From an uncultured Candidatus Saccharibacteria bacterium (GTDB taxonomy: Bacteria; Patescibacteriota; Minisyncoccia; Phycocordibacterales; 01-FULL-45-15b): DNA of 47,935 nt. The position numbers and the translations under genes are program-made. Each line of letters starts with the position of its first letter. The first letter of the stretch is position 1. A model generated the notes under the pieces. The model was not told the origin of the DNA and did no database searches. It saw only the letters and a program-made list of their open reading frames with translations. Below are positions 7,275-38,599 of this stretch, piece by piece. The stretch is from NCBI GenBank assembly GCA_964373765.1, contig CAYJVZ010000001.1, positions 1 to 47,935 on the forward strand, read 5' to 3'.

Positions 7275-7837
7275 TTTGAACCTTTTGATTGCTGTTTATC
7301 GCTGAATTTCCAAATCCAGCTTTATGTTCTTGTGCTATTCTATCATATATAGTTTTATCTGTCAAATCGTCCGCCCCTGAATTATCATTCTAAATGCAAC
7401 CCAGTTTGCAGGCTAATTGCAACCCCTCTTTACCCGAGTTCAACAATCAATTGCAACTCATATGGCTCATGTGCGTGGCGGGCACAAATAACCCTAATAT
7501 GCCGAGGATGGAGAGGGGTGGAGTGAATCTCGTCAAATATCGAGGTTGGTCGTGGATCTGGGACACTCCGTGTTCAAGTCCACATCGCCGTCTCCTAGGT
7601 CCACGTATTTTTAAGCATTTTCCAAACACATCGAAACTATCCGACCGTGACTGTTCGATGTGCGTGTCATTTTTGCCGATATTTGTCATTTGTACTTGTA
7701 AGCGCCTTACTTGGGCAGGCCGTGTCCAAGTGTAGTTGGAGCGTTCTTGTAAAAAGCTTTTCTGATTATTTCGCGGAATTTTAGAATGTTTATGAATGAT
7801 TCTTTGATTTGCGCATTTTGAGACGCTAGGAATCTGT

Positions 7838-34601: not shown

Positions 34602-34969
34602 TATCTATATTGGATAAAAAAAGAACATGGTTTTATTCTCTAGCGGCCTTGATTATCGCTTTTATACTGATTTTTTCTGCAATGGCCTATAAAAAAATTC
34701 AAGCTCAAACAGGCATTCCTTTCGGGGGCTTTGTAACACATGTTGAGTATTGCTGCAACGGGATATTGCTTCAAGTTGGTCCGCCGGTCGGCGGACTCTA
34801 TTTAGTCGGACCCGGTTCAATCATCTTCCCTTTCTATCAATTTTTCAGAAGCGGTGTTTATGTTTTAGGAAATGCCAGCCCGGGCGGAGCCTGCTCGCTC
34901 ATTTCATCTGAATGCGAAGTTACAATTCCGGCCATTGGCACAGTTTCTATCATGGGCACTTCTCTCTAG
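34598..34969 (+). CDS. Small Cys-containing membrane or secreted protein
   Basis: ATGA overlap with the upstream gene. One TM segment, then a Gly/Pro/Cys-containing 80-aa domain. Confidence 0.5.
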   Translation: MISILDKKRTWFYSLAALIIAFILIFSAMAYKKIQAQTGIPFGGFVTHVEYCCNGILLQVGPPVGGLYLVGPGSIIFPFYQFFRSGVYVLGNASPGGACSLISSECEVTIPAIGTVSIMGTSL

Positions 34970-35754
34970 TTATTTTCTAAAAATAGATATATTTTTCTCC
35001 AGTCAGCAAGAGCCAAATCTTCCGGTCTTGCCTTTTCGTTTATGCCGACTTTATTAAAAAAAATACTTCTATTCTCGCCGACAAGACCGAGATTAGACGC
35101 CAATAATTTTCGCTTGTGGGCGAAGCCTTTTTTTAGTATTGCGAAAAATTTTTTCTCATCAATATTTATGAAGAAATCTTTTGAGATATTTTCCATCAAT
35201 AATATTGCCGAATCCACTTTTGGTTTTGGGATGAAAAAATTTTTGCTGACTTTCTTAACGAATTTAGGAACCGAATAGGCTTTAACCGAAAGTGACAAAA
35301 GGCTTTCTTTTCCGGAATGATTAGCCGTAATTCTCTTAGCTACCTCTTTTTGGAGCATTAATACTGCCACCACGGGTTGAATATCACTCTCTAAGATTTT
35401 TCTTATAAATTTTCCAGTGATATAATAAGGGATATTAGCGATAATCTTGAAAGAGTGATTGGACAATCCTATTTCTCTAAAATCAAGACCCAATACATCA
35501 GCATCGATTATTTCTAATCTTTTTTCAGCGATATATCGGCCAAATTTTTCCCTTAAATTCTCCGCTAGCCTTTTGTCTTTTTCAACCGCCGTAACTACAG
35601 CTCCTTGTTCCAAAAGAACTTTAGTTAAAGACCCTTTTCCCGGCCCAACTTCTAAAACTTTTTGACCATTTTCCAAACTGGCAGCTTTTACTAATTCATT
35701 TAGTATAATTCTGGAATTGAGAAAATTTTGCCCCGAGGTCTTATTTGCTTTCAT
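34966..35754 (-). CDS. rsmA: 16S rRNA (adenine1518/1519-N6)-dimethyltransferase
   Basis: GQNFL, the SAM-binding motif VLEVGPGKGSLT, and NIPYYIT. Confidence 0.9.
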   Translation of the reverse strand: MKANKTSGQNFLNSRIILNELVKAASLENGQKVLEVGPGKGSLTKVLLEQGAVVTAVEKDKRLAENLREKFGRYIAEKRLEIIDADVLGLDFREIGLSNHSFKIIANIPYYITGKFIRKILESDIQPVVAVLMLQKEVAKRITANHSGKESLLSLSVKAYSVPKFVKKVSKNFFIPKPKVDSAILLMENISKDFFINIDEKKFFAILKKGFAHKRKLLASNLGLVGENRSIFFNKVGINEKARPEDLALADWRKIYLFLENN

Positions 35755-35789
35755 AAATACATAAATACCACTACATCCAAATCCCCCCT

Positions 35790-35817
35790 CCCTGCGTCAA
35801 CGTGGCAGGTTGACGCA
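35790..35817. repeat. REP-like hairpin, left copy
   Basis: Stem tgcgtcaac/gttgacgca with a 7-nt loop gtggcag, preceded by ccc. Confidence 0.85.
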
Positions 35818-35843
35818 ATAATAGCCTTATATTAAGCCACCAT

Positions 35844-36503
35844 TCAATATTCAAGTTCTGCCCACTTGTTGGTTAATAACATCTCGGAACTTATCATACG
35901 TTTTACTTCTTTTCTGTATTTGAGCTGATCACTATCGAAGAGCTTGAAAAATAAATCTATATTGATAACTGCTGTAAAATTTTTTTTCCCAGCATAATTT
36001 CGATAACTGCTCCATTCGTATCTTTCTAAAAAGTCTATAGCTCGATTAGCATTTTTGATTTCGCCATTTCTCCATGATTGATCATATAAATCGAGCGGAT
36101 TTATTTCTACATAGTATGGTAAATATTGAAGATATGAATCTTCATGCCCAATTATGATATTGGCCTTCTTTTCAAATAAGTAGCCTATTCTTTTGTTTTT
36201 TATATTGAAATATTTTGTGTAACTGTTGCCTAGTCGTTTTGCAAATTCAACAATACCCCCATCAATTGCTTCAACTAGGAGCAGATGATAATGATTGGGT
36301 AGCAATGACCACTTTAATATTTCAACAAGTTTTTCGCGGGCGGTGTCATTCTGCGCAAGATCGAAATGTCTATTTTGAAGTGCCCCTTTTCTGTTGTTTA
36401 ATTTATAGAGACACTCGATAAATCTTAGATAGTCATAACCATTATTGAAAATTTTTTGTTTATTTACTCCTCTATTGCATAAATGTGCTATATCCCCCTT
36501 CAT
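35844..36503 (-). CDS. REP-associated tyrosine transposase (IS200/IS605 Y1 HUH family)
   Basis: HUH motif in LLPNHYHLLL, and a downstream YVEINPL motif (compare YIHxNP of RAYTs). The length, 219 aa, also fits. Confidence 0.75.
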   Translation of the reverse strand: MKGDIAHLCNRGVNKQKIFNNGYDYLRFIECLYKLNNRKGALQNRHFDLAQNDTAREKLVEILKWSLLPNHYHLLLVEAIDGGIVEFAKRLGNSYTKYFNIKNKRIGYLFEKKANIIIGHEDSYLQYLPYYVEINPLDLYDQSWRNGEIKNANRAIDFLERYEWSSYRNYAGKKNFTAVINIDLFFKLFDSDQLKYRKEVKRMISSEMLLTNKWAELEY

Positions 36504-36522
36504 ATTGCTCTATTCAATACTA

Positions 36523-36550
36523 ATACTTCTACTGTGTCAACCTGCCACGT
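36523..36550. repeat. REP-like hairpin, right copy (inverted)
   Basis: tgtgtcaacctgccacgttgacgcaggg, with a 9-bp stem that includes one G-U pair. Confidence 0.85.
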
Positions 36551-36640
36551 TGACGCAGGGTGCGCTAACGCAAAGAATATTGAAACATCTCGTCGAACTA
36601 TAAAATTATAGATAAGCTGAATCTATTTAAAATGTTTTGA

Positions 36641-38599
36641 TTAATCCAAATAAATGGTTTTAATCTTTTCTTTTATTATTGGCGGTTCTTCTGTTGTTTC
36701 AACCAAATCATCGTCTAAATCTGAAAAGAATTCTGAAGGAACGTTCATTTTTTTATTTCCGAAAATGGTGCGGCTGCCGGCAAAGGTCAAAAAAACTTTT
36801 TTCTTGGCGCGGGTAAGGGCCACATAAAACAACCGCCTCTCTTCTTCCGATTCTTCTTCCGATATATCGTCGCTGGTAATTTTTTGATGCGGAAACAAAT
36901 CTTGTTCAAGGCCCGTAATAAAAACATTTTTAAATTCAAGCCCCTTTGAGGCGTGGACGGTCATTAATTTTACGGCCAGCTTATCATCTTTTATTTCATC
37001 CTGATCGGTGGCTAAAGCCGCTTCTTCTAAAAGTTTCTCAACCGATTCAAGTGGCGTCATATGATTGTAGCGAGACGAAAGAGTCACCAATTCGTATAAA
37101 TTTTCCAATCTTTCAGCGTCATCTTCAAGGCCGGTTTTTAAAGCTCTTTCCATTCCTGATTCTTTAATGATTAACCGCAATGTTTCAGAAATTTTACGAC
37201 TTTCTCCGTATTTTTTTATTTTGTCCAGTAAATTATAAAAATCATTTAGATTATTTTTAATATTTTTGCTTAATTCGTTTTCTCGGCCGGCAAAAATTTT
37301 TAGTATTGATGTTTTGCCTATGCCGCGCGGCGGAACATTGATAATTCGCTTAATATCAGAGAGCGAATCTCTGTTAATGCTAGCCTTTAGATAGGAAAGG
37401 GCGTCTTTTATTTCCTTTCTTTCAAAAAATTTAACTCCCAAAACTTGATAAGGAACTCCATGAGAGAGAAAAGCCTCTTCCATCACTCTTGACTGGAAAT
37501 TTGCTCTAAATAAAACAGCTATTTCGTTTGGATTGGTTCCCGATTGCCACAACTCTTTTGATTTAGCGGCTGTAAAATGAGCTTCTTCAACTTCGTCATA
37601 AGCCCCGAAGATGGATATTTTTTCTCCAGCCGGATTTTTGGTAAATAAATTTTTTTCTTTCCTCCTTTTATTTTTTTTGATGACCGTATTGGCCATCGAA
37701 AGAATATTTTTAGTGGAGCGATAATTTTGCTCAAGAACAACCGTTCTTGCGTCGGGATAGTCTTTCTCAAAGTCCATAATATTTTTTATATTGGCTCCTC
37801 GCCAAGCGTAAATATTCTGATCCATATCGCCGACAACGCAAATATTTCTTGTTTTTTTTGACAGCAGGTGAGAAATTTCATACTGAACTTTGTTTGTGTC
37901 TTGATACTCGTCTATGTGGATATATTTCCATTTTTTTTGGTATTTACTCAAAATTTCCTGATGATCGCGAAGAAGTATGGCGGTTTTAAGCAAAAGATCA
38001 TCAAAGTCCAAAGCTCTTTCTTTCCTTAAAATAAGTTCGTATTGTTCCCAGACTTCAGAGACAACGTTTAAAAAGAAATCATTAACGGCTTCCACCCCAA
38101 ACTCTTCTGATGTAACCATATCGCCCTTTTTTCTAGATATAACTTTTAGAATTTTTAAAGGTTCAAAACTTTTCGGATCATAACCGGCTTTTTTTATTGA
38201 CTCTTTTATGGCCTGAATAGAATCATTTTTATCATATATCGTAAAATGTCTGTTTAAACTAAGATGATGAGCGTTTTCTCTGATGATTTTTACGCCAAGA
38301 GCATGAAAAGTTGAAATAAAGGGGCGAATTTCGGAAAGATCCGAAAAAACCGTCAGGTTTTCTGTAATTTCGCTACTGATTAAATTATTAACTCTATCTC
38401 TCATCTCCTTAGCCGCTTTATTGGTAAAAGTTATTGCCAAGATATTTTCTTTGGCTTCCCCGCTCTTTATAATATGGATAATCCTGTGCGTTAGGACCTT
38501 AGTTTTGCCAGCGCCGGCGCCGGCTAAAATCAACAGAGGCCCTTTGGTATGAAGCACAGCCTCTTTTTGTTCGAAATTTAGTCCGTCTAAATAACTCAT
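36641..38599 (-). CDS. pcrA: ATP-dependent DNA helicase PcrA/UvrD
   Basis: AGAGAGKT (motif I), HIDEYQDTN (motif II), TVHASKGLEF, and LFYVALTRAKKKV (motif VI). Confidence 0.9.
   Translation of the reverse strand: MSYLDGLNFEQKEAVLHTKGPLLILAGAGAGKTKVLTHRIIHIIKSGEAKENILAITFTNKAAKEMRDRVNNLISSEITENLTVFSDLSEIRPFISTFHALGVKIIRENAHHLSLNRHFTIYDKNDSIQAIKESIKKAGYDPKSFEPLKILKVISRKKGDMVTSEEFGVEAVNDFFLNVVSEVWEQYELILRKERALDFDDLLLKTAILLRDHQEILSKYQKKWKYIHIDEYQDTNKVQYEISHLLSKKTRNICVVGDMDQNIYAWRGANIKNIMDFEKDYPDARTVVLEQNYRSTKNILSMANTVIKKNKRRKEKNLFTKNPAGEKISIFGAYDEVEEAHFTAAKSKELWQSGTNPNEIAVLFRANFQSRVMEEAFLSHGVPYQVLGVKFFERKEIKDALSYLKASINRDSLSDIKRIINVPPRGIGKTSILKIFAGRENELSKNIKNNLNDFYNLLDKIKKYGESRKISETLRLIIKESGMERALKTGLEDDAERLENLYELVTLSSRYNHMTPLESVEKLLEEAALATDQDEIKDDKLAVKLMTVHASKGLEFKNVFITGLEQDLFPHQKITSDDISEEESEEERRLFYVALTRAKKKVFLTFAGSRTIFGNKKMNVPSEFFSDLDDDLVETTEEPPIIKEKIKTIYLD

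Follow-up and report, generated by a model that had tools for sequence, protein, structure and literature searches.

REP-associated tyrosine transposase (RAYT) genes flanked by inverted repetitive extragenic palindromes (REPs), an arrangement called the REPtron, were defined in 2010 by Nunvar (PMC2817692), and the signatures given there for RAYTs are an invariant N-terminal Thr and an NP(L/V)(R/K)xG motif near the nucleophilic Tyr (PMC2817692). RAYTs have been reported in 24% of species with a complete genome, across many classes, and have been pictured as vertically inherited, housekeeping-like genes (PMC5581495). REP-type repeats have been reported from eight phyla, and REPs have been reported to act at the RNA level; the CGTC-REPs among them carry an unpaired terminal CGTC, an 8-9-bp stem that opens with A-T pairs, a 4-5-nt loop and a CCA tail (PMC3733652). 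The classical evidence for RAYT activity consists of in-vitro cleavage and strand transfer, and the propagation of REPs has been called unresolved (PMC3479197). The subject here is a 219-aa RAYT-like gene and the pair of hairpin repeats around it in an uncultured Candidatus Saccharibacteria bacterium (Patescibacteriota), located on contig CAYJVZ010000001.1 of assembly GCA_964373765.1; the whole 47,935-nt stretch of that contig was analyzed and is called the window below. The host genome (label G000) comprises 729,455 bp in 69 contigs, is 98.9% complete and has a G+C content of 40%; the window is its contig C1. By homologs and neighbours the genome falls in Patescibacteria of the Parcubacteria/Paceibacteria type.

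The region is very probably a REPtron, that is, a gene for a RAYT-like HUH/Y1 single-strand-DNA nuclease/transferase placed between two inverted copies of its cognate repeat, with the repeat also dispersed through the genome as a small REP family. This REPtron belongs to a divergent, Patescibacteria-wide RAYT-like family, whose catalysis and mobilisation are predicted by analogy with the described systems. The evidence consists of the fold of the protein, its invariant catalytic residues, the inverted flanking hairpins and the fact that this hairpin is dispersed in the present genome alone, together with a layout that is conserved across the family with a lineage-specific hairpin, and a hairpin that co-varies with the protein clade. 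A first-pass annotation, made from the sequence, had proposed a RAYT with cognate REPs at this place, and this proposal is supported by the dispersal, by the invariance of the catalytic residues and by the best structural match in the PDB (4ER8). The parts of the element are as follows.

35844..36503, minus strand: intact RAYT-like HUH/Y1 gene, 219 aa, with the HUH motif as H71-Y-H73 and the putative nucleophile Y131 (Y-x3-N135-P).
35790..35817, plus strand: REP copy downstream of the gene's stop, a CCC tail and the perfect hairpin TGCGTCAAC-GTGGCAG-GTTGACGCA (stem 35793-35801/35809-35817, loop 35802-35808), with 26 nt between stop and repeat.
36533..36560, plus strand: REP copy upstream of the start codon, TGTGTCAAC-CTGCCAC-GTTGACGCA and a GGG tail, with 29 nt between; this copy is the left one in opposite orientation with a single stem substitution, and GTAG stands next to it 3' on the gene strand.

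The open reading frame (ORF) contains NHYHLL (H71-Y-H73) and YVEINP (Y131, N135, P136), just as the first-pass annotation had described, and H7, N10, R11, G12, H71, H73, Y127, Y131 and N135 are invariant across 48 aligned homologs. When a profile of the family was compared with the PDB, ISDra2 TnpA was found; the two HUH motifs were aligned with each other, and the Y-I-D stretch conserved in the family (Y131) fell on Y-I-E at the C-terminal end of the ISDra2 TnpA chain. An AlphaFold (AF2) model built on the alignment has a mean pLDDT of 87.5, and its best Foldseek match in the PDB is 4er8_A, a RAYT bound to REP (E 3e-5, 190 columns, ~13% identity); ISDra2, IS608 and IS200 TnpA come next, and the top 15 PDB matches are all RAYT or IS200/IS605 TnpA at a probability of 1.00. 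After the catalytic helix follows a C-terminal helical extension of ~80 aa. A comparison with the Y1_Tnp and RAYT profiles had been proposed as a check, and its outcome is divided: the window protein scores below both curated cut-offs, but all 48 aligned family members match the REP_Tyr_transpos model weakly (best E 4e-7) and 36/48 match Y1_Tnp at E<=0.01 (best 1.4e-6), which stands beside the invariant catalytic residues and the 4ER8 match of the model. Altogether, the protein is a member of the HUH/Y1 superfamily that is closest to RAYTs, and it forms a separate branch outside the curated RAYT family.

Membership of the same superfamily, and the TnpA structures as close second matches, would also fit an ordinary autonomous insertion sequence (IS) of the IS200/IS605 type that is present in one copy, its ends being the two flanking hairpins and the other hairpins in the genome being relics; the many copies in some relatives (up to 13 matches in G042) and the three RAYT lineages found in one and the same gap, described below, can be counted in its favor as well. 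This is improbable, however, because the NCBIfam transpos_IS200 model matches one of the 48 family members (E 0.07) against 48/48 for the RAYT model, and because the ends are one hairpin in inverted orientation rather than distinct subterminal hairpins on one strand, whereas the true IS200-like element of this genome has direct hairpins. Furthermore, ten solo 25-nt hairpins carry no trace of flanking gene sequence, the gene is present in one copy, and it shows a housekeeping-like divergence at a fixed site.

Both flanks had been described as carrying one 28-nt sequence in inverted orientation, and the right repeat is indeed the reverse complement of the left repeat with one mismatch (27/28). 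With up to two mismatches allowed, the hairpin pattern occurs exactly 2 times in the window against 0.00 expected (100 shuffles); the statement that the window holds no further copies was correct, the remaining ten lying elsewhere in the genome. Folded as single-stranded DNA, the left copy forms a 9-bp stem on either strand, with energies of -9.7 and -9.3 kcal/mol (z -4.4, -3.8). The right copy is mispaired at stem position 3, as G.T on the plus strand or A.C on the minus strand, and is weaker (-7.8 kcal/mol, z -1.5); on the minus strand its minimum-energy fold is not the hairpin. As an observation, the first-pass description of the locus was confirmed in full. The CCC/GGG tail, which had been counted as part of the repeat, was rejected as a component of it: the flanks vary among the 12 copies in the genome, and no conserved tail is present in 147 hairpins of the closest clade. 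A GTAG tag was likewise considered and not used; GTA(G/A/T) is found exclusively 3' of the hairpin, at 4 of the 12 copies in this genome, and the tag is not conserved in the clade.

A genome-wide count of the hairpin, which had been suggested as a check, returned 12 copies. In the 729-kb genome, TGCGTCAAC-N7-GTTGACGCA occurs in 10 perfect copies (25 nt identical) and in 2 with one substitution, the 25 nt of the left flanking copy recurring at nine other genomic sites, and the reversed pattern, used as a control, has 0 copies in the host genome. The copies are located as follows (contig:position).

Two flanking the gene; C2:11999; C2:19442/19483; C2:21642/21683; C4:13113; C5:1086; C6:349; C17:4722; C42:4859.

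All 12 are intergenic, chiefly in spacers between same-strand genes and mostly just past a stop codon, and beyond the 25 nt their flanks are unrelated to each other. The pair at C2:19442/19483 is an inverted doublet with a 16-nt spacer, of which C2:21642/21683 is an exact duplicate, so that both doublets are a single sequence duplicated in a 280-bp direct repeat; the other eight copies, including the two that flank the gene, are singlets. Contig C5 starts with a partial hairpin copy and several copies lie close to contig ends, and 12 is therefore a lower bound. The hairpin is absent from all 60 related genomes searched, among them one of the same genus, and a search of JGI metagenome contigs with the exact 25-mer, aimed at strain-level variants, gave 0 matches and no near-identical strain. 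The gene is encoded once, no second copies or pseudogene fragments of it being present in the host genome, and a PF01797 search of that genome found elsewhere just an unrelated IS200-like gene and a fragment.

The position of the copies in tandem-gene spacers, mostly right after a stop codon, and the RNA-level elements that REPs elsewhere have been reported to be (PMC3733652) are what would be expected if the hairpins were regulatory or terminator elements of the host and their adjacency to the gene were incidental. It is, however, highly improbable that this is so: identical 25-mers stand at 10 sites in this genome and in 0/60 relatives, and the flanking by a lineage-specific hairpin recurs in the family and co-varies with the protein clade, which contradicts regulation as the sole explanation. 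A terminator function in particular was rejected, as the hairpins have no T-run, 0 terminator-like sites were found, and copies occur at 12 sites. Nor are the two flanking copies a unique local terminator pair, a possibility raised at the first pass, given that number of copies and an association of gene and hairpin that is conserved family-wide.

The REPtron reading draws further on the closest clade of homologs (50-57% identity), in which hairpins of the same design stand on both sides of the gene at every locus examined (P0002, P0003, P0005, P0006, P0008, P0010, P0011 and P0023); at one of them (L148, in P0005) the downstream copy alone passed the filter, because the upstream hairpin is degenerate. 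The downstream hairpin often overlaps the last codons of the gene. Within the clade, the core of inner stem and loop, GTCAAC-sTGGCAs-GTTGAC, is conserved and the outer stem is variable, and across 16 hairpins from 9 clade members 90% of cells are paired, with compensatory changes in 8/12 pairs. The covariation score is 0.53 against 0.18 when shuffled (0/500 reached 0.53), and sliding the 3' partners collapses the pairing. A reciprocal scan, in which metagenome contigs were searched with the hairpin core alone, found at least 150 hairpins on 120 contigs, roughly ten chance matches being estimated for a collection of that size. Among the matches listed, 40 hairpins are no more than 150 nt away from a homolog of the closest clade (45-60% identity); 57 are solo hairpins with more than 800 nt of sequence on each side; and 53 are too near a contig edge for classification. 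The gene-adjacent hairpins are often pairs 680-800 nt apart around the gene. Among the same matches, only two homologs below 40% identity (33% and 37.5%) are on the scanned contigs, and neither is adjacent to a hairpin.

Outside this clade, palindromic hairpins again stand on both sides of the homologs in related genomes, and their sequence changes from genome to genome. The hairpin of the G024 homolog, GACGGACGT-N4-ACGTCCGTC, has 15 copies in G024; that of the G018 homolog, TTCGGCTAT-N3-ATAGCCGAA, has 11 in G018; and that of the G060 homolog, TTAAGCAGGTT-N-AACCTGCTTAA, has 3 in G060; the control was 0 in each case. When the 200 nt upstream were compared with the 200 nt downstream at 78 GTDB loci with enough flanking sequence, 52 loci showed an exact inverted repeat, 10 nt or more in length, on the two sides of the gene; in 33 of them it reaches at least 17 nt, and most of these long repeats are self-complementary hairpins. 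By our own arithmetic, one 10-mer would be expected by chance at ~0.04 per locus. A word-indexed protein search returned 241 proteins, nearly all from Patescibacteria sources, and the family profile matched 16,108 50%-identity clusters at E<=1e-3 and 485 at E<=1e-30. In species-representative genomes 512 loci were confirmed, of which the best 80 are almost all labelled Patescibacteria, and some database records name the homologs 'transposase' or 'REP-associated tyrosine transposase'. Homologs are present in 39/61 genomes of the order (1-13 matches each, up to 13 in G042) and in 48/201 genomes drawn across the phylum (E<=1e-15). The first-pass annotation had treated a RAYT/REP system as an oddity in this lineage; instead, such genes are common in Patescibacteria. 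Its emphasis on Proteobacteria was also misplaced, since RAYTs were already known far beyond that group (PMC5581495, PMC3733652). No literature describing RAYT/REP systems in Patescibacteria or the candidate phyla radiation (CPR) was found.

The setting of the gene bears on how long the element has been at this site. On the minus strand the order is pcrA (36641-38599), the 219-aa ORF (35844-36503) and rsmA (34966-35754), with these further features.

36641..38599, minus strand: pcrA/UvrD-type helicase gene, directly upstream of the RAYT-like gene.
34966..35754, minus strand: rsmA (RrnaAD family), directly downstream of the RAYT-like gene; it abuts pcrA in most relatives.
35781..35792, minus strand: G-rich tract on the gene strand, GGGAGGGGGGAT, which abuts the downstream hairpin.

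Similar G-rich tails are found after the hairpin copy G000:C4:13113 and after that of L151, the closest homolog, and they are not family-wide.

A comparison of the rsmA-pcrA junction in relatives had been suggested at the first pass and was carried out. In most genomes of the order pcrA directly precedes rsmA; the gap between them is 0-78 nt in 17/25 genomes examined, and 886 nt in the window. Five genomes have an insert of ~650-890 nt in the gap, which consists of RAYT homologs in G000, G021 and G024 and of unrelated small genes in G010 and G022. Among further genomes outside this 25-genome sample, the complete gene order of the window, LysM/M23-pcrA-RAYT-rsmA, recurs in P0003 and P0005, and the P0002 gene lies directly upstream of rsmA; in other close relatives the gene adjoins fusA instead. 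Compared pairwise, the window, P0003 and P0005 share 50-58% identity in the RAYT, 54-56% in pcrA and 48-52% in rsmA, so that the RAYT has diverged in step with its neighbours, as expected under long vertical residence. The module in this sub-lineage thus looks like a long-term resident of the pcrA-rsmA gap and not like a recent arrival. In a FastTree phylogeny, the gap-resident RAYT genes of G021 and G024 fall in distant clades with different hairpins, the deep nodes being weakly supported. Because these genes fall in other clades, the gap has been occupied by at least three lineages of the family, and the tree points to residence with occasional cassette movement or replacement; on the same tree, with its weak deep support, vertical inheritance as the sole history of the position was rejected. 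The gap seems to be a recurrent landing place.

Several of these gaps hold further features. The gap RAYTs of G021 (L036) and G024 (L048) contain their cognate hairpin in frame inside the ORF besides the flanking copies, twice in G021 (encoding NLRGPTSQ) and once in G024 (encoding DRGSTSII); the ORF of the window contains no hairpin copies. In the G010 gap (L047) a 146-aa ORF stands beside a GC-rich hairpin, and in the G022 gap (L052) there is a 179-aa ORF with a lipoprotein-like N-terminus, a hydrophobic stretch followed by Cys. Three loci (L035, L042, L046) have pcrA-rsmA gaps of 170-250 nt, and by eye the L046 gap has two similar hairpin-like units.

Residence of this kind could also mean that the protein is a domesticated hairpin-binding nuclease, the gene and hairpins having been kept for a host function (replication or recombination control, or intergenic marking) and DNA movement having been lost; the dispersed copies would then be old binding sites kept by selection or gene conversion. 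Such a history would suit a single-copy gene that fills the same gap in at least three further genomes with a divergence equal to that of the flanking housekeeping genes, it agrees with the view of RAYTs as vertically inherited, housekeeping-like genes (PMC5581495), and the identity of 10/12 hairpin copies could reflect selection on binding sites. However, domestication is rather unlikely, as the hairpin is missing from 60/60 relatives searched, the same genus included, its copies lie in unrelated flanks, and the catalytic residues are still invariant. Elsewhere in the family there are 1-13 gene copies per genome in varied contexts, and the unrelated RAYT lineages in the same gap of G021 and G024 argue for movement of the cassette.

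The host genome also contains other repeats. A second hairpin family, TTTTGGAGGCTTTTCCTCCAAAA with the structure TTTTGGAGG-CTTTT-CCTCCAAAA, has 23 copies of constant loop orientation and provides the most frequent 16-mers of the genome; its sites include C2:12050, C6:10207/10243, C7:23123/23172, C17:2496/4833/13462 and C42:4822, and none is in the window. A third family, a 38-nt long-loop hairpin (CACACATCGAACnGTCACGGTCGGATAGTTTCGATGTGT), has 16 copies, at 7629-7660 of the window (minus strand) and at 15 further sites (C6, C7, C17, C20, C21, C29, C43, C44); it is often part of a longer unit that it shares with the second family, and contig ends are a frequent location; Rfam scans at gathering threshold of regions holding two third-family copies gave no match. 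Copies of the second and third families are often neighbours of one another and of the RAYT hairpin, and are often located at contig ends. Two ~100-nt composite copies with extended shared flanks (C2:11960-12060 and C42:4800-4920) have the order second-family hairpin, CTAC, RAYT hairpin and GTA..TTGGCGCTACTAAATAGTCA, and at C2:11999 the full hairpin has a partial duplicate (CTAC-TGCGTCAACGTG) in front of it, an arrangement that resembles the footprint of a rearrangement. No transposase gene or enzyme associated with the second or third family was identified in the genome, which calls for caution, in that a flanked gene of its own is not to be assumed for every hairpin family.

Two further loci lie on contig C2. 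At G000:C2:19351-21830 (locus L141, 2352-4831), a 1.9-kb island between rpmF and rnhB has a G+C content of 47-54% against 40% for the genome; it contains three ORFs with no Pfam match and exact 280-bp direct repeats at both ends, each with an inverted RAYT-hairpin doublet, and it could be a repeat-mediated insertion or recombination, or an assembly artefact. At G000:C2:36158-36514, on the minus strand (locus L025), is a canonical IS200-type tnpA (Pfam Y1_Tnp, 94 bits) with one in-frame TAA, flanked by direct copies of its own hairpin CGCAGCAGAGCTGCG and unrelated to the RAYT-like gene and its repeat.

Several observations weigh against the identification of the locus as a REPtron. The score of the protein against Pfam PF01797 (Y1_Tnp) is 18.9 bits (E 0.0017), below the gathering threshold of 23, and against the NCBIfam equivalog NF047646 (REP_Tyr_transpos) it is 15.5 bits with a cut-off of 80. 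The invariant N-terminal Thr of RAYTs is not found, the block there being H7-x-x-N10-R11-G12 with an invariant Asn10, and the NP(L/V)(R/K)xG motif is incomplete: in N135-P-L-D-L-Y the NPL is kept and the basic residue and the Gly are missing, the family consensus being NPLDL. Furthermore, the copy number of the hairpin is low (12), the orientation of the loop relative to the flanks differs inconsistently among copies, and the two commoner hairpin families of the genome (23 and 16 copies), which have no identified enzyme, indicate that hairpins can spread or persist here without a dedicated flanked gene. Finally, the 147 clade hairpins show no conserved unpaired tag such as GTAG beside the stem, and the cleavage-site logic of E. 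coli TnpA-REP is therefore not simply transferable. In a family with no conserved tag beside the stem, the cleavage site is probably recognised by a logic other than the GTAG/CT one of E. coli.

The most likely mechanism, modelled on TnpA-REP and the IS200/IS605 TnpA proteins, is one in which the encoded protein would bind the hairpin, cut near it with a predicted cut site and strand preference, and thereby spread it. The protein would bind the hairpin in its folded form where the DNA is single-stranded, for instance on the lagging-strand template, and would coordinate a metal via His71/His73 (with Asn135). Tyr131 would cut beside the hairpin and form a 5'-phosphotyrosyl intermediate, and strand transfer might then copy or move hairpins, single or as inverted doublets, to new intergenic sites.

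A tentative wider picture is that Patescibacteria have a large RAYT-like family of their own, in which every enzyme lineage and its private hairpin have diversified together over the same span of time as the housekeeping genes next to them (~50% protein identity), the module being a stable resident of fixed gaps such as pcrA-rsmA. If so, an ancient, vertically kept partnership of enzyme and repeat would have lasted under extreme streamlining, which would speak for a host-level role of the hairpin rather than mere parasitism, and the two other hairpin families, which form mosaics with the RAYT hairpin in this genome, might be served by the same enzyme. To our knowledge, nearly all characterised REP/RAYT systems come from Proteobacteria with large genomes, and how REPs spread and whether they are parasites or host partners is still at issue. 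Here the pairing is retained in a 0.73-Mb genome where intergenic space is very scarce, and it involves a protein family that is missed by curated RAYT and Y1 models. The putative recognition element has a simple form, namely a perfect hairpin whose 6-bp inner stem and TGGCA loop are conserved, and the family offers many natural enzyme-hairpin pairs usable for specificity studies. For annotation, hundreds of such genes in candidate-phyla genomes are called 'hypothetical' or generic 'transposase', and the hairpins break assemblies.

Among known systems, REPtrons such as that of E. coli YafM (PDB 4ER8; PMC2817692, PMC3479197) share with the locus the HUH and Tyr-x3-Asn motifs and give the best structural match; in both, a short hairpin frames the gene as two inverted copies and is also scattered over intergenic sites, with a single gene copy here, and enzyme and hairpin co-vary between lineages. 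The pair Y115/N119 of E. coli TnpA-REP (PMC3479197) has the same Y-x3-N spacing as Y131/N135. However, identity to E. coli 4ER8 is ~13% in the structural alignment, the window protein is under the NCBIfam RAYT cut-off, and the 4ER8 chain has 165 residues as against 219 aa here with a longer C-terminal helical part. The locus also differs from REPtrons in having Asn for the N-terminal Thr and NPLDLY for NP(L/V)(R/K)xG, and in its perfect-palindrome hairpins with no conserved 5' GTAG tag, its 12 copies and its 0.73-Mb Patescibacteria host; the unpaired 5' GTAG at the hairpin foot of the E. coli-type (group 2) GTAG REPs has no conserved counterpart here.

The inverted hairpin doublets with a short spacer, and the single-copy and apparently vertically kept RAYT-like gene, resemble REPINs (Bertels & Rainey 2011, PMC3116915; PMC5581495), but 8/12 copies here are singlets, and the one doublet type occurs twice, within the 280-bp duplication. 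Like the TIRYT/TIRtron elements (Di Nocera 2013, PMC3733652), the locus pairs a tyrosine transposase gene beyond the classical GTAG-REP hosts with inverted-repeat flanks that form a moderately abundant family, and the position between unidirectional genes is shared with the REPs of the same study; the repeat here, however, is a short self-complementary hairpin and not a long terminal inverted repeat (TIR), and the GGGGWSAS motif is unmatched. The CGTC-tagged REPs (PMC3733652) were considered and do not fit, as CGTC is inside the paired stem (TGCGTCAAC) and the CCA tail is absent. With the IS200/IS605 TnpA proteins (ISDra2, IS608, IS200) the protein shares the HUH/Y1 fold and, putatively, the recognition of a DNA hairpin, whereas those are dimers of ~130-150 aa from multi-copy elements in which two different hairpins, left and right, occupy one strand and work with a guide tetranucleotide, in contrast to the identical inverted ends found here. 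Taken together, the element is of a kind already known, and its presence outside Proteobacteria is unsurprising; it is set apart by its branch of the protein family, the two missing signature motifs, the absent tag, the perfect palindromes and the tiny host genome.

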